Assembly: GCA_965223845.1 (NCBI GenBank)
Contig: CBDCXR010000004.1
Coordinates: forward strand, 5,324,295 to 5,388,294
DNA from: Planctomycetota bacterium
GTDB lineage: Bacteria > Planctomycetota > UBA8108 > SXIK01
Direction: 5' to 3'
Length of the DNA stretch: 64,000 bases
Position numbers and translations under genes: made by a program. Positions within the stretch are counted from its first letter, which is position 1. Every line of letters begins with the position of its first letter. Positions 12,887 through 51,706 of this stretch are shown here, in pieces. The notes beneath the pieces were generated by a model that saw only the letters and a program-made list of their open reading frames with translations, made no database searches and was not told the origin of the DNA.

Positions 12887-13495
12887 ATGGACACCTTCGA
12901 AGCGATCTACGGCCGACGCGCGGTCAAACACTTCGATCCCGACCACAAGATGAGCGACGCGGAAATCGAGAAGCTTCTCGAAGCCGCGATTCAGTCGCCG
13001 ACCTCGTTCAACATTCAGCATTGGCGCTTCGTCGTAGTGCGCGATCCCGATCTTCGGCAGCAGATTCGAGAGAACGGGAACGACCAAGCACAGATGACGG
13101 ACGCATCGCTCCTCATTCTCATGACGGGCGACGTGTTGGCATGGAAGAAGGACCCGCAGCGCTACTGGAGAAACGCTCCGCCGGAGGTCGCGGAATTGCT
13201 CGTCAACTGGATGGGCCCGTTTCACGAAGGAAAGGACCAGCTTCAGCGCGACGAGGCCCAGCGCTCGATCGGCATGGCGATGCAAACCATCATGGTCGCG
13301 GCGAAGGCGATGGGGTACGAGTCCTGTCCGATGATCGGATTCGATCACGACGCCGTCGCGAAGCTCGTCCGGCTCCCCGATGACCACTGTATCGGGCCGA
13401 TGATCGCTGTCGGAAAGGGCACGAAGGACGCGTGGCCGAAGCCCGGGCAGCTCGCGCTCAGCGAAGTCGTCGTGAACGACCGCTTTCCCGCCTGA
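12887..13495 (+). CDS. Nitroreductase family protein
   Basis: The segments RRAVKHF and SPTSFNIQHWRFVVV show the nitroreductase fold. Confidence 0.8.
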   Translation: MDTFEAIYGRRAVKHFDPDHKMSDAEIEKLLEAAIQSPTSFNIQHWRFVVVRDPDLRQQIRENGNDQAQMTDASLLILMTGDVLAWKKDPQRYWRNAPPEVAELLVNWMGPFHEGKDQLQRDEAQRSIGMAMQTIMVAAKAMGYESCPMIGFDHDAVAKLVRLPDDHCIGPMIAVGKGTKDAWPKPGQLALSEVVVNDRFPA

Positions 13496-29215: not shown

Positions 29216-29760
29216 TGCGCGGACTCGATGGCGGGTGAGAGAGGGAGACGGGAAGAAGAAAGAAGAGAAGAGGAGTTTGTCGGGAACGGGAACGGGAAAA
29301 AAGAAGAGCCGACAGGCACGAGACCTGTCGGCTCTTGGCAATCCGATCCCTTCGGGGGGAGGAGGAGGGACCAGAAGGCGGAGGAGTGAGGGCCGAGGAG
29401 CGGGGAGAGGGAGGGGAGAGAGGGGGAGGTGAAGGGAACCAGCGGCGAGCCGCTGGTTCGGGTCGGCCCTCGAGAGTTGGGAGAGAGGGGAGGGGTGGAA
29501 TGTGCTGAGGAGGGGCGGGCCTCGCTGCCGCGGAGGACAGGCGCCCGGCGGAGGGAAGGGACCCGGGAGCCGACGGGTGAGGAAGGGCCGTCGGCTCCCG
29601 TGAGGGGGGTCCCCTCGAGTGAGGGAGGGAGAGAGAGCAGCGGTGCTGCGGGGCGGTCGAACGACCGAGGAGGGAGGTGATCGTCCGGCCGCAGAGGGTT
29701 TCGGGAGGTTTCGGGTCAGATTTCCTTCGCCGGGGGTCAGCCGGCTCGGGGGGAAAAGCA
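29216..29760 (+). repeat. Purine-rich (GA/GGA-rich on the + strand) non-coding tract of about 540 bp. It contains at least four perfect hairpins: 29306-29334, 29446-29469, 29565-29599 and 29602-29616.
   Basis: Read directly. The strand is very strongly purine-biased on +. The hairpins GAGCCGACAGG/CCTGTCGGCTC and GGGAGCCGACGG/CCGTCGGCTCCC share a core. There is no credible ORF. The only ORF is an antisense Pro-rich artefact. Confidence 0.6.
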
Positions 29761-29798
29761 CCGTGCGTGCCGAAGCGCCCGACCCGCCCCCGAAGACA

Positions 29799-29829
29799 CC
29801 TTAAGTTATTTACATGAAATATCTTAAGG
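29799..29829. promoter_or_regulatory. AT-rich island with the inverted repeat CCTTAAG-N17(AT-rich)-CTTAAGG. It is a candidate promoter or operator for the flotillin module.
   Basis: ccttaagttatttacatgaaatatcttaagg is about 80% AT, embedded in sequence of about 68% GC. It lies about 415 bp upstream of the yqiJ-like start. Confidence 0.4.
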
Positions 29830-30244
29830 GCCTCCCGATCGTGTTCCCTATCCGCTCGAATCCGAGCTTGCGGCCCCCGTTCCCGGACCGGGCTGTATCA
29901 AAAGGAGACACGTAAGCGATCGGTTCGGGTGAGGCGAGACGGAGGAACGTCCGGCCGCGAGCACTCTGAGGATACGGCCGGCGATCTCGCGTGCTCGGCT
30001 GTCTCCGGCACGTAGAGTGACGGCGCACGCAAGACACACCGTCGGCGGTTTTTCCGGTGGACCGCCCCCGCGAGCGATGCCGATGTACCGGGGAGACGGC
30101 GAGTTAACTCGTCTCCTGCGGCGGTCACTCGCGGGGATTCGGAAACGGGTCCAGAGCTCACTCGTCCATCTCGACGCTACCGCAGGGTTCGAACGCCGGC
30201 CCCGCAGGCAGCGAAACGCACGACCCCGGAGCGCAGGCGGAGCG

Positions 30245-30892
30245 ATGACCGAGTTTCTTCAACTCTGCGGACAGCCGTTCAACCTCCCGTGGACGCTGCT
30301 GCTCGGTCTCGTCGTTCTCTATTGGGTGGGCGTCATCGTCGGGGCGCTCGACCTCGACGCGTTCGACTTCGATCTCGACGCGGACGTCGATGTCGATGCC
30401 GACGCCGATGTTGAAGTCGACACCGACGCGAGCGTTCACGGCGGAAGCGCACTGCTCGGCGTTCTCCGCTTCTTCGAGTTCGGCACCGTTCCGACGATGG
30501 TCATCGTCAGCTTCTTCGCGCTCGGTGGCTGGACGGCAGCGCTCCTCTTCAACTTTCACTTCGGTGGATCGACCCTCGTCGGCTTCCTCCTCTTGATCCC
30601 GATCTTCCTCGTCGCCCTCGCCGTGACGAAGGTGACGGCCGTACCGCTCGCCGCGCTGTTTCGCCAACTCGAGAACGAGGACACCGGGACGGTGACGGTC
30701 GAAGGTCAGATCTGCACGGTGAAATCTTCGAAAGTCGACGGCGAGAGCGGTCAAGCCGAGGTGAAATCGAAGGGTGCACCAGTGCTTCTCAACGTTCGCA
30801 CACGAAACGGTGAAGTTCTCCATCGCGGAGACGAGGCGGTGGTGGTTGAGCCAGACCCCGAGACGGGGACGTACTTCGTCGCTCGCCTCTAA
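30245..30892 (+). CDS. YqiJ/NfeD-like inner-membrane protein, the partner of flotillin
   Basis: An acidic DxD repeat run reads DLDADVDVDADADVEVD. Two TM segments are present. The C-terminal OB-fold-like segment is VEGQICTVKSSKVDGESGQAEVKSKGAPVLLNVR. Start at the internal ATG MTEFLQL. Confidence 0.6.
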   Translation: MTEFLQLCGQPFNLPWTLLLGLVVLYWVGVIVGALDLDAFDFDLDADVDVDADADVEVDTDASVHGGSALLGVLRFFEFGTVPTMVIVSFFALGGWTAALLFNFHFGGSTLVGFLLLIPIFLVALAVTKVTAVPLAALFRQLENEDTGTVTVEGQICTVKSSKVDGESGQAEVKSKGAPVLLNVRTRNGEVLHRGDEAVVVEPDPETGTYFVARL

Positions 30893-30985
30893 CTCAGTTC
30901 AAGAAACGCTCGGTCTCACCGCCAGCGGTCTATCCACGAATCTCGAAACCAACGACAAAACGGCGCAGTAGCTCGGAGTAGAGAC

Positions 30986-33016
30986 ATGCTTTTCCTCCTT
31001 CAGACTGACCCCACGAGTTGGATCCCCCTCATCGTCGGAGCGATCTTCTGCCTCATCCTCGCCGGGATCGCCGTCCTCATCGTCAAGTGCTACCGCAAGG
31101 TGCCGCAGGGGACCGCTCTCGTGCGCACGGGGATGGGCGGGCCGAAAGTCACGACGGGCACTGGAGTCGTCGTCATCCCGGTTCTCCACCGCGCCGAGCT
31201 GATGGACATCTCCGTCAAGCGAATCGAAATCGCGCGCGAAGGCGAAGACGGCCTCATTTGCGCCGACAATCTCCGCGCCGATATCAAGGTGGCCTTCTTC
31301 GTCCGCGTGAACAACACCGAGGAAGACATTCTTCAGGTCGCCCAATCGCTCGGTTGCGAGCGCGCCTCGCAGCAGCGGGCGCTCATCGAGCTCTTCGACG
31401 CGAAGTTTTCCGAAGCGCTCAAGACGGTCGGCAAGCAGTTCGATTTCGTCTCGCTCTACAACGAACGGGATCGTTTCAAGGAACAGATCGTCGCGCTGAT
31501 CGGAACGGATCTGAACGGCTACGTCCTTGACGACACCGCGATCGACTTCCTCGAGCAGACCTCGCTCGAGCAGCTCAACCCGAACAACATCCTCGACGCC
31601 GAGGGAATCAAGAAGATCACCGATCTGACCGCGCAGCAGCAGATCCTCGCGAACGACATCGTGCGCGAGAAGGAGAAGGTGATCAAAAAGCAGGACGTCG
31701 AAGCGCGCGAGGCCATCCTCGAGCTCGATCGCCAACAAGCCGAAGCCGAGGCGCGTCAGCTGCGAGAAATCCAAAGCGTCCAGGCACGCGAGACATCCGA
31801 GACGACGCGAGTCAAGGAAGAGGAGCGGCTCAAGGCCGAACGGGCCCGTCTGACCACCGACGAAGAGGTGAAGGTCGCCGAAGAGAACGTCGAGCGACAA
31901 ATCATTGTCGCGAAAAAGAACAAGGAGCGTACCGAGGCGGTCGAGAACGAGCGGATCGAAAAGGATCGGATGCTCGAGCAGACCGAGCGCGAACGCATCG
32001 TCACGCTAGCGCAAATTGAAAAGGACAAGGCGGTCGAAGCGGAGAAGAAAGAGATCCAGGACGTCATCCGCGAGCGCGTCGTCGTCGAGCGGGCTGTCGT
32101 CGAAGAGGAGGAGCGGATCAAGGACACGCGAGACTTCGCCGGCGCGGAGCGACAGAAGCAAGTCGCGGTGACGAAGGCTCAGCAGACCGCAGAGGAAGCG
32201 AAGATCCGTGAGGTTCAAGCCGCGGAAGCCAGCAAGGAAGCGTCGATGCGTCTCGCCGATCAGATGTTGATCGAAGCCGAGGCGAGTCGCGGCGCGGCGG
32301 AGAAGGAGACGGAAGCCAAGAAGCTCCTCGCCGAGGCGAAGGCCGCAGAGGAAGCCGCGCTCGGACTCGCCGAAGCCGAGGTCATGGTCGCCAAGGCAGA
32401 CGCGACGCAGAAGCAGGGTGCCGTCGAGGCCGAAGTGCTCGAGCTCAAGTACTCGGCGGAAGCGGAAGGAATCGACAAGAAGGCCGCGGCGATGAAGAAA
32501 TTCGACGAAGTCGGCCGCGATCACGAGGAGTTCAAGCTCCGGCTCGAGAAGGACCGCGACATCGATCTCGAATCGATTCGGGTGCATCGCGAGGTCGCGG
32601 AGTACCGCGCGCAAATGGTCGGCGAGGCACTCAAGACAGCCAAGATCGACATCGTCGGCGGCGAATCCGAGTTCTTCGACAAGATCGTCGGTGCGATCGG
32701 AAACGGCAAGGCCGTCGATCGAACCGTCCTCGGAAGCGATGTTCTCACGGACGTGAAACAGACGTTCTTCAATGGCGACGCGGAGTACTTCAAGGCTCAG
32801 CTCGAACGCTTCATCGGTCAATTCGGCGTCGACTCCGAGGACATCAAGAACCTCTCGATCGCCGCGCTGATCGGCAAGCTCATGAGCAAGGCGGACAGCG
32901 AGACGGCGCGCGGACGACTCCAGTCGATGCTCGGCGCGGCGCGCGAGGCCGGCCTCGCGGACACTCTCGTCTCGCACCTCGGGCTCGATCTCTCCAAGGA
33001 CTCCGCGCGCTCTTGA
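30986..33016 (+). CDS. Flotillin/SPFH (band 7) family protein (YqiK-like)
   Basis: An N-terminal TM is followed by an SPFH domain, VRTGMGGPKVTTGTGVVVIPVLHRAELMDISVKRIEI. A long EA-rich coiled coil follows. Confidence 0.85.
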   Translation: MLFLLQTDPTSWIPLIVGAIFCLILAGIAVLIVKCYRKVPQGTALVRTGMGGPKVTTGTGVVVIPVLHRAELMDISVKRIEIAREGEDGLICADNLRADIKVAFFVRVNNTEEDILQVAQSLGCERASQQRALIELFDAKFSEALKTVGKQFDFVSLYNERDRFKEQIVALIGTDLNGYVLDDTAIDFLEQTSLEQLNPNNILDAEGIKKITDLTAQQQILANDIVREKEKVIKKQDVEAREAILELDRQQAEAEARQLREIQSVQARETSETTRVKEEERLKAERARLTTDEEVKVAEENVERQIIVAKKNKERTEAVENERIEKDRMLEQTERERIVTLAQIEKDKAVEAEKKEIQDVIRERVVVERAVVEEEERIKDTRDFAGAERQKQVAVTKAQQTAEEAKIREVQAAEASKEASMRLADQMLIEAEASRGAAEKETEAKKLLAEAKAAEEAALGLAEAEVMVAKADATQKQGAVEAEVLELKYSAEAEGIDKKAAAMKKFDEVGRDHEEFKLRLEKDRDIDLESIRVHREVAEYRAQMVGEALKTAKIDIVGGESEFFDKIVGAIGNGKAVDRTVLGSDVLTDVKQTFFNGDAEYFKAQLERFIGQFGVDSEDIKNLSIAALIGKLMSKADSETARGRLQSMLGAAREAGLADTLVSHLGLDLSKDSARS

Positions 33017-33066
33017 GAACTCGAGCTCGCTGAATCGATCTCCCGGCCCGCCCGGACATCGACGCC

Positions 33067-36000
33067 ATGAGTGATCCCGAATCCAACCGCAGCGACGTAG
33101 AATCGACCTCGCCCGAGGAAGCGATCGACTCGAGCACGTACGAAGTTCTGAAGCGCCGCCTCCACTCGAGCGCCGACGAGCTGCAGCGCCGTCTCGATTC
33201 GCTTCACGAGGCGCGAAAGAGTGCGTTCGGCTCGATCGACTTCGAGCTCCTTACGACCGAACGCGTCACGACGCGGCACAACTGCGTCCCGCGTGACATG
33301 GTCGTGATCGGAAATCGACTTCTGGTCGGCTTCAACGTTCAGTTCGGCCTCAAGACGGAGACCGTCCCGGAAGATGTGTTCGCAGTCTTCGGTTTCGCCG
33401 ATCGGAAGTTCACCGAGCAGGATCTCTCGCTCGTCGAGCACCCTCAGTTCGCCGCCGACTTTCGCGACCTCTATCGCTATTACAAGAAGACGTCGTTTCT
33501 ACGCTTTGCGGTGATCGGTCCGTTTCTCTTCATGGTCTTTCGCGTTGGGAAGAGCCCGGAAGATGTGAAGACGTTCAAGTGGGGGATCGAGGGAGATCGA
33601 CTCCGGTACGTAGACAATCGCAGCGACCACGAGTACCGCTCGCCGCCCCAGCACGAGTTCGAGTGGACGCGGACCCACCGCGACCTGCACGTCGATGGCC
33701 TCCACCCGCACATCTCCATCGAAGACCGCGTCTTCGTCGAGACCGTTGGAGGCGACCTCACGATCAAGATCGAGAACAACACGGAATCGGGGGAGGGGAT
33801 CTACGCAGAACCGGTCGACGATCCCGACCAGACTCTGGATGACGCCGAGGTCTACTACGCTCGCGTCGATCAGTTGATCCTGCTCAAGATCAGGCCCTAT
33901 CGCGAATCCGAGTTCCGCTACATCGTCTACAACGAGAAGCTCCAGACGGCGGATCGCATCGATTCGATCGAGGGTTCGTGCGTCATTCTCCCCGAAGACC
34001 AGGGAATCGTCTTCTCGAACGGCTACTACCTTCAAGCCGGCGAAAAGAAGGTCTTCGACACCGCTGCGCACGATATGCGCTTCGATCGGCGCATCGCCGC
34101 GCCGAACGGAGAAGACTTCCTCTTCGTGTTCCACAACCACGACGCCGGGACATACACGCTCCTCCCGTACAACATCATCGACCAACGCGTCGAGAATCCC
34201 ATCAACGGACACGGCCACGCGCTGTTCGAGAATGGCGAGCTCATTCTCTTCAAAGGCCAGCCGGAACCACAGAAACATCACGCGCTCCAGATCTGGCGCA
34301 CGCCGTTTCTCGGGGACGACGCCGTCGAGTTCGCCGGAGATACACCGCTCCACAAAATCGGCAACCGCGAGCTCGTTCGTGGGATGGCCGAATGCCACGC
34401 CGTGGTAGTTCTCTCACGCCGCGATGAGATCTACGCCGACCTGTACGTCGATCTCGTGAAGACCTGCGGCGATCTCGTCGACAGCTACTTTTGGCTCGGG
34501 GACCCCGATTGCTTCGATCTCCGCGAGACGATCGAGGAAATCCGAGGGACGGCGAGCGCCGCGGTCGGCGAGTTCGAGAAAGTCGTGGCGGTCCGTCGCA
34601 GTACGGATGCACAGGTCGCCGAGGTCACCGCCGCGACACGTTCGGCCATGCGTGACGCCGGACTGCGCCGCTTCGAAGCGATCGACGACTTCGTCGCATC
34701 GCTGAGCGAGCTTCGAGGCGTGCGCGGACGCATCATTTCACTGCGGGATCTCCGGTACATCGACGGCGCCGTCGTCGATGCGCTCGAAGCCGAGGTCGAA
34801 ACAGCGTCGGCCGAGATCGCGGAGCGCTGCGTCACGTTTCTCCTCGATCCGGCGGCGCTCGACCCGTACGAAGAGCGAGTCGAAAGTCTTCGCGCGGGGA
34901 TCGACCCCCTCTCGACCGTAAGCGAGGCGAAAGCACTCAGCGAGCACATCGACACGCTCGCGGGCGAGCTCGAGCTTCTCATCGAAACGGTCAGCAACCT
35001 CAAGATCGCCGACGCGACCAAGCGGACCGAGATCGTCGATCGAATCTCGTCGGTGTTCGCGACCGTGAACGGCGTGCGGGCGACCCTGCGCGGCAAGACC
35101 CAGACTCTCGCCTCCGCCGAAGGCATCGCGGAGTTCAACTCCCAGATCAAGCTCCTCGGGCAGTCGGTCGTCAACTATCTCGACCTCTGCGACTCTCCGG
35201 AGAAGTGCGACGACTACCTCACGAAGGTGATGGTGCAGCTCGAGGAGATGGAAGGGAAGTTTGCGGAGTTCGACGAGTTTGTCGTCCAGCTCGCCGAGAA
35301 GCGGGACGAAGTCTACACCGCGTTCGAAGGTCGAAAGGTCTCGCTTCTCGAGAAACGAAACAAGCGCGCGGCCTCGCTTGCGTCTGCCGCCGATCGTATC
35401 CTCAGCGGCATCCGCGCGCGCGTCGACAAGCTCGAATCCGTCGATGAGATCAACGGCTTCTTCGCGGCAGACCTTCTCGTCGACAAGGTGCGCGATCTCC
35501 TCGTTGAGCTCGGCGATCTGGACGATTCGGTCAAGGTCGACGAGATCGAGAGTCGGCTCAAGACGATCCGCGAGGATTCCGTCCGCCAACTCAAGGACCG
35601 CCTCGACCTCTACACCGGCGGCGGCAGCCTGATTCAGCTCGGGCGACATCAATTCTCGGTGAACACGCAGCCGCTCGATCTGACGACCGTTTCGAAAGAC
35701 GGCGAGCTCTGCCTTCACCTCACCGGGACCGATTTTCTCGACCCGATCTCCGACGCGGAGCTCACGGCGACCGGCGACGTCGCGGGGCTCGAAGTCGTCT
35801 CCGAATCGCCGGAGGTGTATCGCGGCGAGTACCTCGCGTACCAGCTTCTCACCGCCGGAGCGGCCGCGGGCAACGGCACGGCGCCCACCGAGGACTGGCT
35901 CTCTCTCGACCGCGACACCCGCCTGGAGCGAATCCAGAAATTCATGAGCACGCGCTACAGCGAGGCGTACACCAAAGGAGTCCACGATCAGGACGCGGAG

Positions 36001-38295
36001 CGAATTCTGTCCGCCGCGCTCGAGATCGACGCCGAATGCGGACTCCTCCGCTTCGCTTCGAGCGCGCGAGCGATCGCGCGGCTCTGGTGGAATCACCTCG
36101 CCCCCGACGCACAGAAGCGGCGGCAAAGCGAGCTCGCGAGTCTCGGTCACGCGCTCGCGCTGTTTCCCGGCAGCTCGCCGACGGGATCCTACACCGACGA
36201 TCTCGCCGCCGAGCTCGGGGAATTCGTTCTTGCGAGCGAGGGTCTTCTCGACGAAGCGCTCGTTCCGGAAGCCGCCGAGTACCTCTACTCCGAGCTCCTC
36301 GAGGAAGGCCCGTTCGTCGTCTCGGCCGACGCGGCACGGATCGTCGAGGCGTTCCGTGACGAAATCGCGAAGAGAAAATCGAAGACCGAGTTCAAGAACC
36401 GCCTCGCGGCAGTCGGCGACGATTGGCGGGCGCGCGTCCGCCTTCTCCGCGACTGGACGAACGCGTTTTTGGCGGCGAAAAATGACCGCGCGGCTCGACC
36501 CTACGCCGACGAAGTCGCGGCGATCTTGGAGTCTGACTCGAGTGAACCCGAAGCGATCGTCACGGCACCCGTCGATCGCGAGATCGGAGATCTCCTCGGA
36601 AACCATCCGCGGATCAGCGAGGGCGTGTGTCGTCTCGACTACCCCGAGTTCCGCGCACGGGTTCGGCGTCACCGCGACGTCGTCGCCCCGCGCTTCGAGC
36701 GCTACGCCGCTCGAAAGCGCGAGATCGTCGACCGCGCCCGAAACGACCTAAAGCTCGAAGAGTTCAAGCCGCGAGTTCTCAGCTCGTTCGTGCGGAATCG
36801 TCTCATCGACGAAGTCTATCTCCCCCTCGTCGGCGACAACCTCGCCAAACAGATCGGCGCCGCCGGAGCGGAAAAACGAACCGATCTCATGGGATTGCTC
36901 CTCGTCATCTCTCCTCCCGGCTACGGGAAGACGACGCTCATGGAGTACATCGCGAGTCGGCTCGGAATCATCTTCATGAAGGTGAACGGCCCCGCGATCG
37001 GCCATCACGTCACCTCGCTCGATCCCGCCGAAGCACCGAACGCCTCCGCGCGCGAGGAGCTCGAGAAGCTGAATCTCGCCTTCGAGATGGGCGACAACGT
37101 GCTCATCTACCTCGACGACATTCAGCACTGCAATCCGGAGCTCCTCCAGAAGTTCATCTCCCTCTGCGACGCGCAGCGAAAGATCGAGGGAGTGTTCCGC
37201 GGACGCGCTCGGACCTACGATCTGCGCGGCCGCAAGGTCGCCGTCGTCATGGCGGGAAATCCGTACACGGAGAGCGGCGAGAAGTTTCAGATCCCCGACA
37301 TGCTCGCCAACCGAGCCGACACCTACAACCTCGGCGAGATTCTCGGCGGGAACGAAGAAGCGTTCAACATGAGCTATCTCGAGAACGCGATCACTTCAAA
37401 CCCGGTGCTGAATCCCCTCGCCACACGGAGCCAGAAGGATGTGTACGCGATCATCCACATGGCAGAGACCGGTTCCGATGACGGTGTCGAGCTCGAAGGG
37501 AAGTACTCGCTCGAAGAGCTTCAAGAAATGGTCTCGACCATGAAGAAGCTCCTCCGCGTGCGCGACGTGATTCTCCGAGTGAATCGCGAGTACATCCGTT
37601 CCGCCGCTCAGGCTGACGACTACCGTACGGAGCCCGCGTTCAAGCTCCAGGGCTCCTACCGCAACATGAACCGAATCGCCGAGAAGGTGCTTTCGGTCAT
37701 GAACGACGACGAGCTCGAGGCGGTGATCTTCGAAGCCTACGAGAACGACGCGCAGACGCTGACGACCGGCGCCGAAGCGAATCTGCTCAAGTTCAAGGAG
37801 ATGTTCGACAAGCTGACACCCGAGGAGACGCGGCGCTGGGAAGAGATCAAAAGAACCTTTCAGCGAAATCTTCTTCTCGGGAGCGCCGGCGACGACAAGT
37901 TCGCTCAGGTGGTCGCGCAGCTCTCGAGCTTCAATGAATCGCTCGCGTCGATCGGCGCGGCAATCGGAGACGCGGCGAAGGCTCGTGATCGATCGAGCCC
38001 GATCGCTTCACCGGCGGGCGCCGGAGCGAAACGCCGCGCCCCCCGTCCTTCGCCTCAAGAGATCCGTGTCGTCAACCGCATCCCGAAGGTATTCCTCAAC
38101 GTCCTCGAGCAACAGTTCGAGTTGATGCGCGGCTGGCTCGAGCCTCTCCAAGACGAGAGCCGCCGGCAGTCCACTCAGTTCTCACACCTCCGCGAGCGCG
38201 TGGAAGAATCCCTCTCGCGGCACGCCGAGCTGATCGAGGACCTCCGGCGCTCTGACATCGAGCGCGGGGACGACGGCGACACGACGGGCGATTGA
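33067..38295 (+). CDS. Giant (1742 aa) protein with a beta-rich N-terminal region, an extended coiled-coil middle and a C-terminal MoxR/AAA_5-class ATPase domain
   Basis: The Walker A motif is VISPPGYGKTTLMEY, at about 36905-36950. The Walker B / AAA_5-like motif is VLIYLDDIQHCNPELLQKFISLCD, at about 37098-37170. The sensor-like segment is VAVVMAGNPYTESGEKFQIPDMLANRAD. The gene starts 50 bp after flotillin. Confidence 0.7.
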   Translation: MSDPESNRSDVESTSPEEAIDSSTYEVLKRRLHSSADELQRRLDSLHEARKSAFGSIDFELLTTERVTTRHNCVPRDMVVIGNRLLVGFNVQFGLKTETVPEDVFAVFGFADRKFTEQDLSLVEHPQFAADFRDLYRYYKKTSFLRFAVIGPFLFMVFRVGKSPEDVKTFKWGIEGDRLRYVDNRSDHEYRSPPQHEFEWTRTHRDLHVDGLHPHISIEDRVFVETVGGDLTIKIENNTESGEGIYAEPVDDPDQTLDDAEVYYARVDQLILLKIRPYRESEFRYIVYNEKLQTADRIDSIEGSCVILPEDQGIVFSNGYYLQAGEKKVFDTAAHDMRFDRRIAAPNGEDFLFVFHNHDAGTYTLLPYNIIDQRVENPINGHGHALFENGELILFKGQPEPQKHHALQIWRTPFLGDDAVEFAGDTPLHKIGNRELVRGMAECHAVVVLSRRDEIYADLYVDLVKTCGDLVDSYFWLGDPDCFDLRETIEEIRGTASAAVGEFEKVVAVRRSTDAQVAEVTAATRSAMRDAGLRRFEAIDDFVASLSELRGVRGRIISLRDLRYIDGAVVDALEAEVETASAEIAERCVTFLLDPAALDPYEERVESLRAGIDPLSTVSEAKALSEHIDTLAGELELLIETVSNLKIADATKRTEIVDRISSVFATVNGVRATLRGKTQTLASAEGIAEFNSQIKLLGQSVVNYLDLCDSPEKCDDYLTKVMVQLEEMEGKFAEFDEFVVQLAEKRDEVYTAFEGRKVSLLEKRNKRAASLASAADRILSGIRARVDKLESVDEINGFFAADLLVDKVRDLLVELGDLDDSVKVDEIESRLKTIREDSVRQLKDRLDLYTGGGSLIQLGRHQFSVNTQPLDLTTVSKDGELCLHLTGTDFLDPISDAELTATGDVAGLEVVSESPEVYRGEYLAYQLLTAGAAAGNGTAPTEDWLSLDRDTRLERIQKFMSTRYSEAYTKGVHDQDAERILSAALEIDAECGLLRFASSARAIARLWWNHLAPDAQKRRQSELASLGHALALFPGSSPTGSYTDDLAAELGEFVLASEGLLDEALVPEAAEYLYSELLEEGPFVVSADAARIVEAFRDEIAKRKSKTEFKNRLAAVGDDWRARVRLLRDWTNAFLAAKNDRAARPYADEVAAILESDSSEPEAIVTAPVDREIGDLLGNHPRISEGVCRLDYPEFRARVRRHRDVVAPRFERYAARKREIVDRARNDLKLEEFKPRVLSSFVRNRLIDEVYLPLVGDNLAKQIGAAGAEKRTDLMGLLLVISPPGYGKTTLMEYIASRLGIIFMKVNGPAIGHHVTSLDPAEAPNASAREELEKLNLAFEMGDNVLIYLDDIQHCNPELLQKFISLCDAQRKIEGVFRGRARTYDLRGRKVAVVMAGNPYTESGEKFQIPDMLANRADTYNLGEILGGNEEAFNMSYLENAITSNPVLNPLATRSQKDVYAIIHMAETGSDDGVELEGKYSLEELQEMVSTMKKLLRVRDVILRVNREYIRSAAQADDYRTEPAFKLQGSYRNMNRIAEKVLSVMNDDELEAVIFEAYENDAQTLTTGAEANLLKFKEMFDKLTPEETRRWEEIKRTFQRNLLLGSAGDDKFAQVVAQLSSFNESLASIGAAIGDAAKARDRSSPIASPAGAGAKRRAPRPSPQEIRVVNRIPKVFLNVLEQQFELMRGWLEPLQDESRRQSTQFSHLRERVEESLSRHAELIEDLRRSDIERGDDGDTTGD

Positions 38296-38406: not shown

Positions 38407-40935
38407 ATGACCGATGTGGGCTCGGCGTGTTCGGGACGAGCCCACGCGCGGAGCTCCCCCGGACCCGTTCTCACTCGCACTCTTTCGATGCACTCTCGGC
38501 TGAAGCTCCTTCCCCTGCTCTCACGTCGCGAATCCTCACCGCAGTGGATCGCCGGTCTAGCGGCGCTCGGACTCGGCGCGACGGTCGCGACGGTTCTCAT
38601 CGGGCGAGCCCTTCCCCCGGAGGCAGCGCTCGCGTCGGCCGACAACGCGCATCTCTACGTACCCGTCCGCGCGATGACCGCATGGTCGCTCGCCGGGGGC
38701 GAGCTGCCGCTCTGGAACCCCTACGTCGGCTGCGGGGTCCCGTTTCTCGCCAACCCGATGACGCAGAGCGTCTATCCGGGAAACTTCGTGTTTCTCCTCT
38801 TCGGTGCGGTCGCGGGAATCAAAGTGTTCTACGTCGCACACACAGCGCTCCTCACTTACGCGTTTTCCTCACTCGCGCGCGCGTTCGGAGCCTCGCGGAG
38901 AGCGTCGATCGCAGGCGGCCTTCTGTTCGCTCTCGCCGGACCGATCGTCAGCCTCCACTGGAATCCACTCTGGACGGCGGGGCTTCCTTGGATGCTTCTC
39001 GCACTCGCGTCGACGCATCTCTTGGTTCTCGGGCGCGTCGAGGTGAAACGCCTCCTCGCCATCGCCGCCTGCCTCGCGCTCACGGTACTCGCGGGCGGAT
39101 TCGAGCTGATCGTCGGCTACACCTTCTTCGCGGCAGCGGACGTCGCCGCCGCGACGTTCCTGAGGCGCGATCGTCTCGCCGGATCATCGCTTAGAGGTCG
39201 CGTCCAGCGAGCGACGATGTACTACGGCGCCCTTACGGTCGCCGGGTCGGCAGCACTCGCTCTCGGCGCGATTCAACTTCTCCCCGCGCTCGAGCTCTTT
39301 CGCGAGAGCTCTCGCTCGTGCGGCGTCTCCATGGCGACAGCCGGGCTGTGGTCCCTTCCTCCTCTTCGTCTCCTCGAATGGCTCGCACCGCAGCTCTACC
39401 TGGAACCCGAGAGCGGGACTCACTGGGGAACGCTTCTCCTCCCGAACGAATCGTACTACTCGACGCCGTTCCTCCCCGGGATCTACCTCGGCGCGCCCGC
39501 GGTGATTCTCGCTGCGATCGGTGTCGGACGGATTCGCCGCGGGGATCGCCGGCTTCTTCTCGGCACGTTCGTCTGCACGCTCGTCCTCGCGTTCGGAATC
39601 ACGACGCCGATCTTCGAGCTCGCACGGAACCTCGTCCCCGGAATCGCACTCTTCCGCTATCCGGTGAAGCTCGTCGTGTTCGCGGTCATCCCGCTCGCAC
39701 TCGCTGCGACGTTCGGCGTCGATGCGCTCCTCACGAAATCCGATGGCGCGCGACGCCCCGCGGCGGTCGCCTGGATCGTCACGCTCCTCGTCGCTCTTCC
39801 GCTTTCGTTCCTCGTGTTCGCTCCGGATCCGTTCGAGGCGTGGCTCAGCGATCGTCTCGCCCGCACTTCGTTCGAGACTCACGCCGCGGCGCTCGTTCGA
39901 GCCGCGCGAAGCGCACTTCTCTACGGGACGATTCTCGCGGCTGCGGTGTCGGCGCTCATCAGCCTCCGCCGTCGCTTTCCGGCTTCGATCGGTGCCGGCC
40001 TGATCCTCGTCGTCGCGATCGCCGATCTCGTCATCGTCGGGCGTGATCTCGTCGAAACGGCGCCCACGCTCGGCGTCGTCGTTCGTCCGCCGAACGTTCC
40101 CGCCCCAGCCGCACTCGCCGATCCGACTGGCGAGCAGCGCATTCACTGCGTTCCCCCCGGCCCCTTTCGCTACTTTTTTCAGCCGTATCACGCGATGCAG
40201 TTCGGCTACCGGAGCACCGTCGACTACGGTGCGATGGATCTTCGCGGGCACTCGCTCCTCAGAGACGCGCTCGGCGAGAACGATCCGCGCCTCCTCGCGC
40301 TCGCTTCCGCTCGCCTGCGTCTCAGCGTCCCCCTGGAATCCCCTCACATCTTCGAGGCGCGGATCGAGTCGGTTCCCACCCTGCCGCGTGCGCGGCTCGT
40401 TCCGTTCGCGGCGATTGCGGAGAGCGACGACGACGCGATCGGCTACATCGCCTCGGCGGCGTTCCGTCCGGAGCGCGAGGTCGTTCTCAGCGACGCACCG
40501 ATCGAGCTCGGACGCGTCAATCGTTCCCGAACGCCGAAGAACGAGCCCGCCGGAAGCGAGGATCGTTGCCGATTGACGATCGACGAACGGCGACACATCC
40601 GCATCGACATCGAGACAGCGTCCGAGGCGTTCCTCGTCCTCAGCGATACTTGGTATCCAGGCTGGGAGACGACCGTCGACGGCGAGCAAGCGAGCTGCTA
40701 TCGCGCCAATCTCGCGTTTCGCGCGGTGCGAGTCCCGCCGGGACGCCATGTGGTCGAGTTCCGCTATCGCCCGCTCTCGATCCTCTGGGGCATCGCGACA
40801 AGTGCGGTCGCAGCAAGTTGCCTCGGCGCCGTTTTCGTTATCGGGGCGATGCGCCGGCGACGAGAACGCGTCGAGCGAGTAGCGACGACACGCTCCGCTG
40901 CGATCGAAACGCCGACGCTCGCGCCCACACCGTAG
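38407..40935 (+). CDS. YfhO-family membrane protein (GT-C-like glycosyltransferase family), copy 1
   Basis: It is a polytopic membrane protein. The segments LWNPYVGCGVPFLANPMTQSVYPGN and the C-terminal SDTWYPGWETTVDGEQ...YRANLAFRAV are the YfhO hallmarks. Confidence 0.65.
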   Translation: MTDVGSACSGRAHARSSPGPVLTRTLSMHSRLKLLPLLSRRESSPQWIAGLAALGLGATVATVLIGRALPPEAALASADNAHLYVPVRAMTAWSLAGGELPLWNPYVGCGVPFLANPMTQSVYPGNFVFLLFGAVAGIKVFYVAHTALLTYAFSSLARAFGASRRASIAGGLLFALAGPIVSLHWNPLWTAGLPWMLLALASTHLLVLGRVEVKRLLAIAACLALTVLAGGFELIVGYTFFAAADVAAATFLRRDRLAGSSLRGRVQRATMYYGALTVAGSAALALGAIQLLPALELFRESSRSCGVSMATAGLWSLPPLRLLEWLAPQLYLEPESGTHWGTLLLPNESYYSTPFLPGIYLGAPAVILAAIGVGRIRRGDRRLLLGTFVCTLVLAFGITTPIFELARNLVPGIALFRYPVKLVVFAVIPLALAATFGVDALLTKSDGARRPAAVAWIVTLLVALPLSFLVFAPDPFEAWLSDRLARTSFETHAAALVRAARSALLYGTILAAAVSALISLRRRFPASIGAGLILVVAIADLVIVGRDLVETAPTLGVVVRPPNVPAPAALADPTGEQRIHCVPPGPFRYFFQPYHAMQFGYRSTVDYGAMDLRGHSLLRDALGENDPRLLALASARLRLSVPLESPHIFEARIESVPTLPRARLVPFAAIAESDDDAIGYIASAAFRPEREVVLSDAPIELGRVNRSRTPKNEPAGSEDRCRLTIDERRHIRIDIETASEAFLVLSDTWYPGWETTVDGEQASCYRANLAFRAVRVPPGRHVVEFRYRPLSILWGIATSAVAASCLGAVFVIGAMRRRRERVERVATTRSAAIETPTLAPTP

Positions 40936-40987: not shown

Positions 40988-43438
40988 ATGTTCTCCGTTT
41001 CCTTCCGAAGCGCTCACGACGCCCTCCGTCGCCGCACGCGCCGAATCGTCACCTCGCCGCGCGCGTCCGCGGTGATCGGTGGAGCGACGCTCGCGGGAAC
41101 GGGCGTCCTCACGCTCCTCTGGGCGGCGCTCCCGTCGGATGTCGTCCTCTCGACGCTCGACGCCGCTCACCTCTATCTCCCGATCAAGGTACGCACGGCA
41201 CTCGCGTTCGAATTCGGACATCTACCGCTCTGGACGCCCGAAGTCGGCTGCGGAGTTCCCTTCCTCGCAAACCCGATGACGCAGGCGCTCTATCCCGGAA
41301 ACACTCTCTTCGCTCTCCTCCCGGCGATTCCCGGCATGAAGGCCTTTGTCGCTATCCACCTCGCCGGCGCAGCGGTCGCGTTCTACTGGCTCGCCGGAAC
41401 GTATACGCGTCGCCGCGCGGCTCGGGCCCTCGGCGCAGTGACGTTCGCGGCGAGCGGCGCGATCGTCAGCCTTCACTGGAATCCGCTGTGGATCGCGGGT
41501 CTCCCGTGGCTTCTCGTCGCGCTTCATTCCGTCCGGAGCGCGCTTCGAGGGACCGGTTTCGGAGCGTACGCGACGATCGCGCTCGCGCTCGCGATGCTGA
41601 TCTTCGCCGGCGCCTTCGAAATCGCGGTCGGCTTCGCGTGGCTCGCCGGCGTCGAGGTCGTCGCCGCACTACTCGGTTCGCGTGATCGGAAGGAGCTCAC
41701 TCCGAGTGGCGAGTGCGCGGATACTGGTAGAGGATCGACCGCGAGAACTCTCCTCGCTAGGTGCGGTGGACTCGCGGGCGCGGCAGCCGTCGCGGCGGCG
41801 GTCGGTGCGGTTCAGCTCCTCCCGACTCTCGAGCTTCTCGGCGAGACTTCGCGCGCGTCGGGCCTCGGCGGCCGGGAAGCGGGCGAGTGGTCGCTCGTTT
41901 CCGCACGCCTTCTCGAGACGGTAGCTCCCGGTGCCTTCGGGAACAGCGCCGTCGGCGAAGGCTGGTCGTTCCTTCTCGGAGGAAGCGATCTCAGCCGCAC
42001 GTCGTTTCTCGCGGGGCTGTATCTAGGTGTTCCCGCGCTCGCGCTCGCGATCGCAGCGATCACCAGGGCGCGCCGGGAGACGATCGTCGTCGCCGGTTTG
42101 CTAGTCGTGTGCGTCCTTCTCGCTCTCGGCGACGCGACGCCCGCCTTCGCCGCGGCGCGCGAATTCCTGCCCGGCGTCGCGCTCTTTCGTTATCCCGTAA
42201 AGCTGTTTGCATTCGCGATGGTTCCGCTCGCGCTTCTCGTGACTCTCGGCGCGGCGGCAGTCTTCGACCGCGACGAGCGAGCGACGCGCGCCGCTTCGTG
42301 GTGCGGAGCGATGCTCACCTTTGCGCTGACGCTCGGTGTCGTCCTTCACGCCGCGGAGATCGCGTCGCTCAAGGAGTGGATGAACGTCCGCTCGGTCGAA
42401 AGCGAGCGTCCTCTCGACACCGATGCGCTCGCGTCGATGCTTCGGTGGTCTCTCGTCCACGGCGCGCTCGTCGGCGGCGCTTGGCTCGCCTGGCTCGCGC
42501 GGTGGAAACGGCGCGAGTCGGCGGCGCTCATCGTTCTGCTCGTCGCGGGGATCGGTCTCGATCTCACCCTCGTCAATCGCCGCTGGGTCGCGGTCACGCC
42601 CGCCGAACGCATCGCCGCGCGACCGCGTGAGCTTCCTCCGCCGAGCGCACTTTGGGCTCCTGCCGGCGAGCGGCGCATCGGCTGCGTGCTGCCGGGGCCG
42701 TACCAGTACTTCTACGATCCTTACCTCGCTGCGCTCCACGGCTACCGCGCCACGCTCGACTACGGTTCGGTCTCCCTCCGAACGCACGCCGAGCTCGACG
42801 GCGCGGCTCAAGCGTCCTCGCTGGGCTCGGACCGCCGACTCGAGCTTTCCGCGGCCGCGGTGCGCGTGCGTCTCTCCGAGACTCGCGAGCTCCTCGTCGA
42901 ACCGCTGCCCCGGGCCGTGCCGAGGGCGTACCTCGTCCCGCGGGCGTCGATCGCGACCGACGACGCCGGCGCTCGCTGGTACGCCGGGACGCCCGAGTTC
43001 GATCCGCTCACCGAAGTGATCTTGTCCGACGCGCCGCTCGCGCTCGCAGAGACCGGACGAGATGCGAACGGACGTCCGACCGGCGGCGGGGCATCCGGTC
43101 AAGTCGCAATCGAGGTGGATCGACCGCGCGAGGTTCGAATCGACGTCAAAGCCGAACGCGACAGCTTTCTCGTCCTCACCGACTCGTGGTACCCCGGCTG
43201 GGAGGTCGAGGTCGACGGCGAGCAACGCGAGATTTACCGGGCGAACCTCGCATTCCGCGCCGTGCCGCTCACCTCCGGCCGTCACGAGGTCGTTTTCTCC
43301 TATCGACCGCGCAGCGTTGCCCGCGGTCTCGCGATCAGCAGCACTTCGATCGTCGGCGCGCTCGCGATCGCTCTCGTCGTCCTGGGACGCCGACTACGCG
43401 GCCGGACGGTCGCTCTCAGAGCGAGCTCAAGTACTTGA
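40988..43438 (+). CDS. YfhO-family membrane protein, copy 2 (tandem paralog)
   Basis: The segments LWTPEVGCGVPFLANPMTQALYPGN and TDSWYPGWEVEVDGEQREIYRANLAFRAV match copy 1 closely. Confidence 0.65.
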   Translation: MFSVSFRSAHDALRRRTRRIVTSPRASAVIGGATLAGTGVLTLLWAALPSDVVLSTLDAAHLYLPIKVRTALAFEFGHLPLWTPEVGCGVPFLANPMTQALYPGNTLFALLPAIPGMKAFVAIHLAGAAVAFYWLAGTYTRRRAARALGAVTFAASGAIVSLHWNPLWIAGLPWLLVALHSVRSALRGTGFGAYATIALALAMLIFAGAFEIAVGFAWLAGVEVVAALLGSRDRKELTPSGECADTGRGSTARTLLARCGGLAGAAAVAAAVGAVQLLPTLELLGETSRASGLGGREAGEWSLVSARLLETVAPGAFGNSAVGEGWSFLLGGSDLSRTSFLAGLYLGVPALALAIAAITRARRETIVVAGLLVVCVLLALGDATPAFAAAREFLPGVALFRYPVKLFAFAMVPLALLVTLGAAAVFDRDERATRAASWCGAMLTFALTLGVVLHAAEIASLKEWMNVRSVESERPLDTDALASMLRWSLVHGALVGGAWLAWLARWKRRESAALIVLLVAGIGLDLTLVNRRWVAVTPAERIAARPRELPPPSALWAPAGERRIGCVLPGPYQYFYDPYLAALHGYRATLDYGSVSLRTHAELDGAAQASSLGSDRRLELSAAAVRVRLSETRELLVEPLPRAVPRAYLVPRASIATDDAGARWYAGTPEFDPLTEVILSDAPLALAETGRDANGRPTGGGASGQVAIEVDRPREVRIDVKAERDSFLVLTDSWYPGWEVEVDGEQREIYRANLAFRAVPLTSGRHEVVFSYRPRSVARGLAISSTSIVGALAIALVVLGRRLRGRTVALRASSST

Positions 43439-46400
43439 GAAGCTCGATCAGCTCGCGTTCGCTCAGATCGTCGACGAGTCCTTCCGGCATGAACGACGAC
43501 ATCTCCTTTTCCCGCGCAGCGATCTCTTCTGCCTTGAGCACGACGGTCTCCGTGAGCGTTCGCAGCGTGACGCTCTCCTCCGTTTCCGCGAGGACGAGAC
43601 CCGAGAGAACCGATCCGTCGTCCGTCGTAATCACCGTGAGCTGAAAGTCCTCACCGACGACTGCGTTTGGATCGAGGACACTCTCGAGAAAATACGCCGC
43701 ACCGTTCCTGCCGGAACCGCGGAGATCGGGGCCGAGCGGCGTCGCGGTCGTGTTGCCCGCCACAGCCGCGGCCGCGTTCGGCGAGTGGCACGTAGCGCAC
43801 AACTCGTCGAAGGTTTTCTTTCCCGCGCCGCCGTCGTAGGCCCAAAGCGGAGCCTCGGTGAAGAGCTTCGCGTAGCGCGCAAGGCGAGACGACACATCGC
43901 CCGAGGTGTCGCGCACGGTTCCCCACAGCTTTGCGATCAGTGTGTTCACTTCGCCGTCGCGGAGATTCCGAAGTTGGCGCACGTGAAACGAGTTCAGGTG
44001 CTTCTTGTCGATTCGCCCCGCGACCACCGCCTCGAGGAGCAACCGCGCCGAGGGCGCCCGCACGATGAGCGTTCCGAGGGCGAGAGCGCGCTCGCGGTCG
44101 TCGAGCCGAGCGAACCGCTCGAGGATCGCTCCCGGAATCTCGGCGGCGCCGAAGCGCGCGAGAAGCCGGAGGACTCCCGCTCGAAGCTCCGGAACGTCGA
44201 GAAGCTTGAGGAACGCCGGGACCGATTTCGCGTCGGCGACGCTCGCGAGCACCTCGAATGCGCCGCGGCGCTCGGATTCGACGGAGAGCGCTTTCCTCAA
44301 CTTCGAAAGCACGTTCTCGTCGGAGAGAAGCGCTCCGACGCGCTCGGCTCGGTCGCGAATCGCCGGATCGGAGTGCGCGTAGAGTTTGCCCGCGACCTTC
44401 GCCCAGGCCTCTGGTGCGCGCGAGGGCGAGAGTCCGCGGCGGGCAAAGAGAACCAGCTCGAGCGTACGTCGTTCGGCATCCGCCGACGGGCTTCGGGCGA
44501 GGCCCTCGAGCAGGCGAGCGAGCCCGGTCTCCGTCTTCGCCGCGTGCCAAACGACGAAGTCGCGGAGTTGGGGCCATCGCGTCCTCGCGGCGAGCCCGAG
44601 CGCGCGCTCGAGATCACCGTCGACGTGCGGCGCGATCCCGTACCAGACCATCCGCGGCAGGTAGGCGTCGCCCGCATCCTCTGCGCGCGCAGCGAGCGCC
44701 GCAGCGAGTTTCCAAGCGAGCTCCGTAGGTGCGTCTGCGATGTAGGACGCCACCGCGAGGCGAACTCGCGCCGACGGGTCGCTCTCGGCGAGTCGAAGGA
44801 GCGACGCCGCCTGCCGCTCTGCGCGACCCGGATCTTCCGTCGCGAGACGGACGAACCACGCGCGGACGTCGTCGCTCGGCGAAGCGAGCAGCCGAGCGAA
44901 GTCCTCGGTCCGAAGCGCGCCGATCCCGTGAAGCGTCCACGCCGCGCGGAGGACGTCCGTCGCTCGATCGCCCTTGAGACCATCGCGAAGCGCCGCGATC
45001 GCGTCCCGTTCGATCGCGCGCCGTGTCGATCGCTCGTGGAGAAGCCGCCGCGAGGTTCGTGCGTACCAGGCGTTCCGATGGTCCTGCAGGCGAGCGAGCT
45101 CGAGGTCGGAAAGTTGGCGGAGATCGACCGAGCGCGGCGCGTAGGTCGAGGCGTAACTCATCCGGTAGATGCGACCGGTCGCGCGATCCCAACTCTCCGT
45201 ATTCGGGCTGTGACAGTGCTGCCGGTCGTACCAATCGATGATGTAGACGGCGCCGTCGGGGCCGTAGTCGAGATCGACCGCGACGTACTGCGGGTCGTCG
45301 ACGAAGAGAATATCCGTCCCCGCGTGCGTCGTTTCGTAGCCTGCTCCGCGGCGCTCGTTCACCTGACGGTTGATCTGGTGGCCGTGGAGGTTGTGCGTGA
45401 AGAGTTGCCCGCGGTACTCCTCGGGCCAATTGTCGCCGAGGTAGACCATCGTGCCGACGTGAGAATGCCCGCCGTAGAGAGCGCGACTTCCGGGCTTCCC
45501 GGCGCCGCCTTCCCCGTGACCGTAGCGAGCAGACGCGCGGAGGAAGTTTCGGAGATGCGGCAAGCCCGCGGGATGAGTTCCCGAGACGAACGGTGCATGG
45601 CGAGCGTTCGCTTGATTCCAGTAGTGTCCGCGAAGGACGACGTGCGTCGTGGGACCGCCGCCCCAATAACTCCGACAGTGCGTCATGAAGAGCTCGCCCA
45701 CTTCGTCGAAATCGAGCCCCCACTGATTGCTGCCACCGTGCGCGAAGACCTCGAAGGTCTTTCTCGTCGGGTGGTAGCGCCACACTCCGGCGTAGAGAAG
45801 AACGCGGTTCTCCTCGGGCGTGCCCGGAATCCCGATGCGCGAGGCGTTGAACACGCCTTGATTCCCGTAGAGCCAGCCATCCGGCCCCCACGCGAAATTG
45901 TTCAGCGTTTCGTGCGTATCTTGGTAGCCCCAGCCGTCGAGCACGACCTCCGCGGCGCCGTCGGGAACGTCGTCTTCATCCGCGTCCGGGACAAAGAGGA
46001 GCTGCGGCGCGGCGCCGATCCAAACTCCGCCGTGGCCCAGTTCGAGACCGCTCACTAGATTGAGGCCAGCGAGAAACACCTTCTTCTCGTCGAAGGAACC
46101 GTCGCCGTCGGTGTCGGCGAGGATGGAGATGCGATCTTGCCCCTCACCCTCCGGACGGCGCTGCGGGTAGGTGAACGCCTCGGCGATCCACAAACGGCCG
46201 CGCGCGTCGAAGGTGAACGCAATCGGCTGGAGAACGCGCGGCTCGGCGGCGACGAGATCGAGGCGGAATCCCGCGGGGACGTAGGCGTTCGCGACCGTCC
46301 GCTCGGCAGCACTGGTCGGATCGCTTCCGATCGGGTTTCGCTGGAGATGCGTGAGCAGGGGATTCGCGCGCAGGCGACGAGGTCGTCCGAGCGCTCGAAG

Positions 46401-47687: not shown

Positions 47688-47779
47688 GCGACGGAGCGGG
47701 GTAAGTAGTGCTGAGAACATCGACGAATCGCGTGAGGTTTCGAAGGGAACAGGAGCGTAAGAGCGGAGAGAACAGAGCC

Positions 47780-50700: not shown

Positions 50701-51706
50701 CGGCACCACACTCGTCGATCCGGGCGAGCGCGGCGTTCAATTCACCGCGGAGCGCGCGTCCGTGAACTTCGGCCGCGGTCTCGCCCTCGTAGGGCGGTGA
50801 ACCGGTCAGAATCTCGCAGAGAATCGCTCCGAGCCCGAACACGTCGGAGCGCTCGTCGAGCAAATCGATCTCCCCGCGAGCCTGCTCGGGTGACATGTAC
50901 GCGGGCGTACCGAGCACGCTCCCGGCGAGAGACTCCGAACCGGCGGCGCTCGATCGCGCGGTCGAGATGATGCTCAGATCCTTCGGTTTTCCGGCGCGGC
51001 GATCGTCCGCCTCTCCCCCGCGCGCGAGGACCTTCGCGAGGCCCCAGTCCATCACCTGCACCTCGCCGAACGGCCCGACCATGATGTTCGACGGCTTGAG
51101 ATCCCGATGAATCACGCCGCGCGCGTGCGCGTAGGCAAGCGGCTGACAGATCTGCTCGAAGACGCTGAGAAAGCGCGGACGCTCGCAAGCGGGACTCTCG
51201 CGCTCGTCGAGAAGGCGAGAGAGCGTCTGCCCCTTGACGAGCTTCATTGCGAAAAAAGGTCGATCGCCGCCGACGAGTCCCATCTCGTGCACCGGAACGA
51301 TGCCGGGATGCTGAAGCTGCCCTCCGATCTGAGCTTCCTCGACGAAGCGGCGGACGACCTCCGGGCGCTCGTGGTGGCTTCCGAGGAGGACCTTGATGGC
51401 GATGTCGCGACCGAGGTCGACATCGCGCGCTTTGAAAACGGCGCCGACGCCGCCGCGACCGATTTCGCCATCGATCTGATACCGGCCGATCTCTCGGGGA
51501 AGCTCCGGTTCGTCCGTCGCACCGAGGGGACGGTGCACGGGCGCTCCGTCTTCTTCGATCTCGCGGAGATGAACGCGCGAGGTCGCGATCGTCTGCTCGA
51601 TCACGGTGGGCGCGGGACGACTCGTGCGAGACGACCCACCGCGCTCCGAGGCATCACCCGGTTCTGGCTCGTCGACCGGAAGGGTCTCGTCGGGGGTTCC
51701 ACTCAC
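47780..51706 (-). CDS. Hanks-type serine/threonine protein kinase with a TM segment, TPR-like region and C-terminal malectin-like domain
   Basis: Kinase subdomains are present: [13 protein letters not shown]...[22 protein letters not shown] and [10 protein letters not shown]. The C-terminal segment [22 protein letters not shown] is malectin-like. Confidence 0.8.

Follow-up and report, generated by a model that had tools for sequence, protein, structure and literature searches.

A conserved operon combining a YqiJ-like membrane protein, a flotillin and a giant MoxR-like AAA+ ATPase: a possible bacterial membrane-stress module

A 64,000-nucleotide stretch of the genome of a Planctomycetota bacterium (assembly GCA_965223845.1, contig CBDCXR010000004.1, forward-strand positions 5,324,295 to 5,388,294; hereafter the window) carries three consecutive genes on the plus strand, which we designate A, B and C. 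They encode an inner-membrane protein of the YqiJ family, a flotillin of the YqiK/FloT type and a giant AAA+ ATPase, respectively. The three genes form an operon shared by at least ten phyla of bacteria, and the identities of the genes and their linkage can be stated with high confidence. As to function, we lean towards the view that the trio constitutes a membrane-stress module, whose ATPase would act by remodelling flotillin or PspA scaffolds or the clients of these scaffolds.

Gene order and distribution of the operon

The gaps within the trio measure 93 bp (A-B) and 50 bp (B-C), and the coordinates of the three open reading frames (ORFs) are exactly those given in the initial annotation of the window. 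Products of identical lengths, all unnamed, are present on a single 7.87-Mb contig in a public protein collection. Relatives of C are numerous: at E≤1e-10 the family comprises >5,232 homologue clusters at the 90% identity level, residues 1-680 of C match 931 clusters at 50% identity, and at least 584 matching stretches were found among species-representative genomes. From the latter, 80 loci were subjected to gene-neighbourhood analysis (by record title: Bacteroidota, 32; Verrucomicrobiota, 21; Planctomycetota, 17; Clostridia, 5; Desulfobacterota, 3; Fibrobacterota, 1; unassigned, 1), and linkage was counted at the 62 loci with >3.5 kb of sequence upstream of C. Indeed, a homologue of B is located immediately upstream of C and on the same strand at 59 of these 62 loci (~95%), and A was also detectable by tblastn at 51 of the 62. 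The median gaps across loci are 16 bp between A and B and 123 bp between B and C. The C family is thus one of proteins with ~1,600-1,900 residues that are flotillin-adjacent in ~95% of the examined loci, rather than a family that occurs mostly without flotillin neighbours.

Clustering of the neighbours at all 80 loci revealed that only A and B are kept across the set, while some Bacteroidota add PspA, CesT/Tir and a helix-turn-helix (HTH) regulator. The flanks of the trio vary between loci. The trio is also found in Agaribacterium (Gammaproteobacteria), on megaplasmid pQBR103 of Pseudomonas fluorescens SBW25 and on a Sumerlaeota contig, as well as on a Streptomyces plasmid and a Deinococcus plasmid, the record annotation together with the sizes and order of the genes being the basis for the last two. 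A metagenome contig encodes a C protein 33% identical to that of the window, with a flotillin gene upstream and an A-sized ORF that has no tblastn match to A. The synteny of C with SPFH and NfeD-like genes, on which the initial annotation had made its reading depend, is therefore conserved and reaches distant members in Actinomycetota, Deinococcota and Gammaproteobacteria. Given more than 5,200 homologues of C and a gene order kept across phyla, the operon is beyond what chance would produce.

The initial annotation had presented the trio as an undescribed machine, which does not hold. The same operon was already covered, by comparative genomics and in connection with the PspA membrane-stress (PSP) system, in one paragraph by Ravi et al. 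(mSystems 2024, preprint 2020; PMC11237479), who describe a CesT/Tir-PspA pair, a YqiJ/YuaF protein with three transmembrane segments, a flotillin and a protein composed of propeller, coiled-coil and AAA-ATPase parts. These authors state that abbreviated operons lacking PspA are "more widely distributed" and propose a chaperone-like role of the operon in assembling complexes linked to the membrane (PMC11237479). Their supplementary table gives the neighbourhood of Dokdonia donghaensis ANH61663.1 as CesT/Tir, YqiJ-YuaF, Band-7 plus coiled coil plus flotillin, and beta-propeller plus coiled coil plus AAA-ATPase (PMC11237479); the likeness of the Dokdonia operon to the trio is taken from gene order and architecture in other Flavobacteriaceae. 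The window trio shares with this operon type the three families, their identical order and the common strand. It differs in that the 64 kb contain no CesT/Tir, PspA or regulator gene and in that C possesses a lineage-restricted C-terminal tail. As no PspA or CesT/Tir match was obtained by tblastn in the window, the operon is the PspA-less, abbreviated form, and it adds a clean Planctomycetota example to an operon type known in silico. The literature searched contained no paper on the C ATPase family beyond PMC11237479, and an earlier survey of SPFH operons mentions no ATPase.

The extended form of the operon was recovered repeatedly. At 14 Bacteroidota loci, a divergent HTH regulator gene, a CesT_Tir_1 gene (E=5e-56) and a PspA_IM30 gene (E=9e-38) are located directly upstream of A-B-C. 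At two more loci PspA is present and CesT/Tir is undetectable. In Agaribacterium, DUF2170 and PspA genes adjoin the trio. On pQBR103 (locus L087, 1043-14247), the trio terminates a ten-gene cluster on one strand with the order YjfI, PspA, rhomboid, DUF2491, DUF350, DUF1190, glutathionylspermidine-synthase-family protein, A, B and C. The SBW25/pQBR103 host is experimentally tractable.

Two side observations concern other neighbours of C. At the distantly related locus L084, a gene for the toxic-anion resistance protein TelA (11989-13227) is located directly downstream of C, an arrangement not observed at the other loci. An FtsH gene is found ~6 kb upstream of C at the same locus, and together with TelA it may represent a further link to envelope stress. 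No conserved fourth gene was found in the B-C gaps, in which the ORFs are variable. In some Bacteroidota and Verrucomicrobiota, this gap contains insertions (L016 8609-9695, L064 7874-9774, L024, L038, L062, L027 and L028) that encode DMP19-like, DUF3997, DUF3592 or small nuclease-like ORFs, and the junction seems to tolerate or attract insertions.

Domain composition of the three proteins

Protein A consists of an N-terminal transmembrane helix, an acidic, D-rich loop (residues ~35-64), two more hydrophobic segments and a C-terminal beta domain (residues ~150-215). Pfam detected no NfeD, DUF1449 or other match in A, and BLASTP comparison with E. coli YqiJ alone was marginal (E=0.041). The assignment was settled by profile comparison: a profile of 43 A orthologues matches E. 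coli YqiJ with an hhalign probability of 96.9% (E=1.5e-10, 187 columns), and the match spans nearly the full length, through the C-terminal domain to residue 215. A is therefore a member of the YqiJ family, as initially proposed, and YqiJ has been treated as an NfeD homologue (PMC2636767).

Protein B possesses one N-terminal transmembrane segment (residues 7-40) followed by the SPFH domain. Its alignment with E. coli YqiK comprises 446 residues at 30% identity (E=5e-47) and continues through the E/K/A-rich region located C-terminal to the SPFH domain. Whole-protein scans of B with Pfam and NCBIfam gave no SPFH match; PF01145 (Band_7) was detected only when residues 1-240 were scanned alone (E=5.7e-13; 49.7 bits versus a cut-off of 23.6). 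We attribute the failure with the whole protein to the composition filter of HMMER acting on the E/K/A-rich remainder. Both this hit and the similarity to YqiK bear out the flotillin label that B had received. The precomputed annotations of the B orthologues at loci L001 and L002 are blank as well. Blank annotations together with whole-protein misses indicate that flotillins of the B type are likely to be under-annotated systematically. Together, A and B correspond to the well-known scaffold pair of an NfeD-like and an SPFH protein, which is placed at the inner membrane on its cytoplasmic face.

The C-terminal domain of B is a feature of flotillins linked to C. It was detected by tblastn at 69 loci, with a median identity of 50% over 209 residues, and gave no tblastn match in the E. 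coli yqiJK locus. This domain could serve as a docking region, for which it is the candidate within B.

Protein C has no transmembrane segment, and in databases it is named "DNA repair ATPase" or "MoxR-like ATPase". Pfam assigns DUF3686 (PF12458, E=9.1e-185) and DUF7902 to it, and a weak AAA/AAA_5 signal at residues 1278-1403. No solved structure of a family member was found in the resources searched, and sequence and profile searches of the PDB gave P-loop matches only. In an AlphaFold2 model of residues 1-700 (mean predicted local distance difference test score, pLDDT, 86.7), a long helix (residues 16-54) is followed by ~28 strands (residues 60-411), which are consistent with a seven-bladed beta-propeller. 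Foldseek returned generic propellers only, the best at E=4e-7 with a template-modelling score of ~0.2 and identities of at most 12%. Residues 427-699 are modelled as discrete helical bundles resembling spectrin repeats and not as one long coiled coil. The region from residue 427 to ~1250 is largely helical, and its unmodelled part holds conserved motifs unlike a coiled coil. The layout of C is close to the one initially drawn, with its beta-rich N-terminal part and its C-terminal AAA_5/MoxR-like ATPase; the ~800 residues drawn as coiled coil are a largely helical arm which, where modelled, is made up of discrete bundles.

A second AlphaFold2 model, covering residues 1150-1742 (mean pLDDT 76, higher in the core), has an AAA+ fold of the standard type, including a helical lid. 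Model residues 223-236, which connect helix 3 to strand 4 ahead of the sensor-1 strand, form a hairpin; no clear beta-hairpin is seen where strand 2 leads into helix 2. The nearest structural neighbours of the module are the MoxR proteins CbbQ and NorQ. Walker A and Walker B motifs are invariant in 21 of 21 diverse homologues. The Walker B motif of AAA+ proteins usually ends in D-E, and that of C has D-D. The C-terminal tail comprises a linker that is disordered in the model (pLDDT <50) and a helix at residues ~1674-1733. It is detectable at 15 loci only, 12 from Planctomycetota, two from Desulfobacterota and one from Sumerlaeota. The positions of all features are compiled in Table 1.

Table 1. 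Positions of the operon, its encoded domains and motifs, and features of the upstream region in the window
Feature	Position	Strand	Description
Upstream intergenic region	29216-30244	.	1029 bp; purine-rich on the plus strand; three perfect hairpins
Perfect hairpins	29304-29336, 29436-29459, 29564-29600	.	arms of 11-13 nt; upstream of gene A
Palindrome CCTTAAGTTATTTACATGAAATATCTTAAGG	29799-29829	.	31 bp, AT-rich; in AT-rich island ~415 bp upstream of gene A
Gene A	30245-30892	+	215 aa (amino acids); YqiJ-family (DUF1449-like, NfeD-related) inner-membrane protein
Gene B	30986-33016	+	676 aa; YqiK/FloT-type flotillin
SPFH/Band_7 domain of B	31097-31645	+	aa 38-220; PF01145
C-terminal domain of B	32339-33013	+	aa 452-676, ~225 aa; kept in C-linked flotillins
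Gene C	33067-38295	+	1742 aa; soluble giant AAA+ ATPase
DUF3686 region of C	33178-34491	+	aa 38-475; beta-propeller, N-terminal helix
Helical arm of C	34492-36852	+	aa ~476-1262; includes DUF7902
DUF7902 in C	34855-35103	+	aa 597-679; Pfam
AAA+ module of C	36853-37866	+	aa ~1263-1600; Walker A, Walker B, hairpin before sensor-1 strand
Walker A, SPPGYGKTT	36910-36936	+	gene C
Walker B, LIYLDD	37102-37119	+	gene C; D-D in place of D-E
C-terminal tail of C	37867-38292	+	aa 1601-1742, 140 aa; Ala/Pro/Arg-rich linker, then long conserved helix

Proposed role of the ATPase and alternative explanations

In the membrane-stress module that we favour, the flotillin/YqiJ assembly would mark or sense a stressed membrane patch and hold clients there. 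C would be recruited to this scaffold, perhaps via its propeller and the operon-specific C-terminal domain of B, and would oligomerise through its AAA+ module. The ATP that it consumes would drive the remodelling or disassembly of one target out of three, namely the scaffold itself, polymers of the PspA/ESCRT-III type whose genes lie at other sites in the genome, or scaffold-bound client proteins. Unlike the gene identities, the domain architecture and the gene linkage, the interaction of the three proteins, the oligomeric state, the substrate and the physiological role are inferred; ATP-driven remodelling at flotillin microdomains, as already suggested in the initial annotation, appears a reasonable inference. 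As a flotillin gene lies beside C at ~95% of the loci and PspA does so in several lineages, C is a candidate for an energy-consuming component of membrane maintenance. The mechanistic role of bacterial flotillins is still debated.

Complexes of HflK/C with FtsH provide a general precedent for an SPFH cage paired with an AAA+ machine. Both this system and the proposed module would join a membrane scaffold of the SPFH family to an AAA+ machine in function. FtsH is, however, a membrane-anchored enzyme of the classical AAA clade with a protease domain, whereas C is a soluble, MoxR-like protein without one; the likeness is hence an analogy, the motors not being homologous. ESCRT-III/Vps4 and PspA/PspF resemble the proposed module in that membrane-remodelling polymers are paired with an AAA+ regulator, and several lineages have PspA genes in physical linkage with the trio. 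With the MoxR proteins (CbbQ, NorQ, RavA), C shares the AAA_5 signature and an AAA+ core that resembles members of this family most, at a sequence identity of only 15-16%. MoxR proteins are distinguished by their size of ~250-500 residues and their VWA partners, while C comprises 1742 residues with a fused propeller and helical arm and has D-D in its Walker B motif. The first two genes have well-known counterparts: in E. coli YqiJ-YqiK and in B. subtilis YuaF(NfeD2)-FloT(YuaG), a gene for an NfeD-like protein with three transmembrane segments precedes the flotillin gene in one operon (PMC2636767). The E. coli yqiJK operon differs in having no third gene, sibD/ibsD following yqiK, and YqiK is without a detectable counterpart of the ~225-residue C-terminal domain of B.

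Work on related scaffolds shows where an ATPase could fit in. FloA-NfeD is an ATP-independent holdase for unfolded proteins (PMC11222466). In B. subtilis, an SPFH protein is reported to be needed for linking PspA to the membrane (PMC8581546). A 2025 review notes that bacteria appear to be without a Vps4-like ATPase regulating PspA/ESCRT-III polymers (PMC7619361). C might fill such a gap as the ATP-driven partner that the flotillin and PspA scaffolds of bacteria have seemed to lack, a ring-forming, MoxR-like motor whose propeller would dock onto the C-terminal domain of B; we put this specific version forward tentatively, as a possibility that falls short of being probable. If true, the operon would encode an SPFH-cage/AAA+ machine akin to HflK/C-FtsH or ESCRT-III/Vps4, which would disassemble scaffolds or extract and refold the clients that flotillin-NfeD holds without ATP. 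Such a system would represent a new class of membrane-quality-control machine, present in at least ten bacterial phyla.

Several points weigh against a membrane-stress module of this kind. PspA and CesT/Tir are missing from the window itself, and since most loci lack both, the link to PspA may hold in certain lineages only. C stands without a flotillin at three of the 62 loci, where the neighbours are unrelated (STAND/TPR, 7TMR-DISM and Uma2/TonB) and suggest no alternative partner. A C relative of 1040 residues at locus L086 (7001-10123), 48% identical to C of the window, possesses DUF3686 and DUF7902 and lacks the AAA+ module, and it has no flotillin neighbour either; it may represent either a pseudogene that was truncated or a distinct paralogue without the ATPase. 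MoxR proteins usually act together with a VWA-domain partner, and neighbour clustering at the 80 loci found none kept near the trio. The propeller on which docking would depend has no informative structural relative in the Foldseek search. As the D-D version of Walker B occurs in all 21 aligned homologues, the hydrolysis properties of C may be unusual. Finally, the literature searched contained no experimental study of any member of the C family. The L086 copy is located near an integrase gene and an Rhs/Tc-toxin gene.

CbbQ/CbbO act on Rubisco and NorQ/NorD on nitric-oxide reductase. With CbbQ and NorQ as the nearest structural neighbours of its AAA+ module, C might likewise be a MoxR-type maturation factor that puts together one membrane complex or inserts its cofactor, for which the flotillin/YqiJ pair would be only a platform holding the client, and the stabilisation of unfolded clients by flotillin-NfeD (PMC11222466) would suit such a role. 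However, neither a VWA partner nor a candidate client gene is kept beside the trio, the flanks differ in every lineage, and the additional partners that recur are PspA and CesT/Tir rather than an enzyme complex, so that we regard a dedicated maturation factor as unlikely. Somewhat less likely still is an anti-phage or abortive-infection system in which the scaffold senses infection and the ATPase executes the response, a role that the initial annotation had also envisaged. A large multi-domain NTPase with membrane partners would fit in with defence, some loci have small nuclease-like ORFs between B and C or AbiJ_NTD4, deaminase or PDDEXK_3 neighbours, and one copy resides on megaplasmid pQBR103. 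These defence-like neighbours are, however, not kept across loci, and in the window the trio is surrounded by metabolic genes. PADLOC-DB 2.0 gave no significant match: A and B had none, and C matched only IetA and mad8 through the P-loop (E=0.004 and 0.013). A scan of viral contigs found no relatives, and no nuclease, protease or TIR effector domain was detected in C. Without significant PADLOC matches, viral relatives or a consistent defence-island context, the suggested defence role is not supported.

The database names "DNA repair ATPase" and "ATPase involved in DNA repair", which recur in the Pfam description of DUF3686, would make C a DNA-repair enzyme whose adjacency to a flotillin is incidental, and C does show weak P-loop similarity to RuvB. 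Yet the scores of the RuvB models (20-23 bits) stay far below the cut-offs (282-299), the matches are confined to ~50 residues around Walker A, and no DNA-binding, SMC/Rad50-type or nuclease domain was detected in C. A membrane scaffold partner at 95% of the loci and accessory partners such as PspA and CesT/Tir point elsewhere, and the literature searched holds no paper that backs the name. We consider a function in DNA repair highly improbable, and the name is probably misleading.

Upstream region and other genes of the window

The ~1 kb preceding gene A was fairly described as structured non-coding DNA at the outset: it contains three hairpins and a palindrome, and no ORF with a family match was found in it. 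The region probably harbors the promoter and regulatory region of the operon. A search of it detected no sigma-70-like promoter, and Rfam gave matches at chance level only, none of which reached the gathering score of a family. The palindrome occurs once in the window, versus 0.01 occurrences expected by chance, and from its sequence it may be considered a candidate operator. It is not kept upstream of the operon at 18 related loci, and a function as operator is therefore unproven. On the minus strand, a T-run comes after the first hairpin (29304-29336), which is scored as an intrinsic terminator of that strand. This hints that a transcript of the minus strand or a small RNA, as yet unannotated, may lie between the gene for an MBL-fold hydrolase and gene A.

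The G+C content of the window is 61-67%. Apart from the trio, it encodes IlvD, a 2-hydroxyacid dehydrogenase, the MBL-fold hydrolase, two YfhO-like membrane proteins, a DUF7133/cytochrome-c protein and a Ser/Thr kinase with a malectin domain, and these genes fit a Planctomycetota-like chromosome. The two YfhO-like proteins are encoded by tandem paralogous ORFs on the plus strand (38407-40935 and 40988-43438; ~820-840 residues), which have matches to the C-terminus of YfhO. The pair starts 111 bp past C on the same strand, at a position where the AT skew changes sharply. As it is not kept beside the trio elsewhere, it is probably outside the module. Further downstream, two genes on the minus strand (43416-47783 and 47780-51706) have coding regions that overlap by 4 bp. 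One minus-strand product, of 1455 residues, combines domains of the 3-keto-disaccharide hydrolase, DUF7133 and cytochrome c types; the other, of 1308 residues, is a Ser/Thr kinase whose malectin domain is C-terminal.

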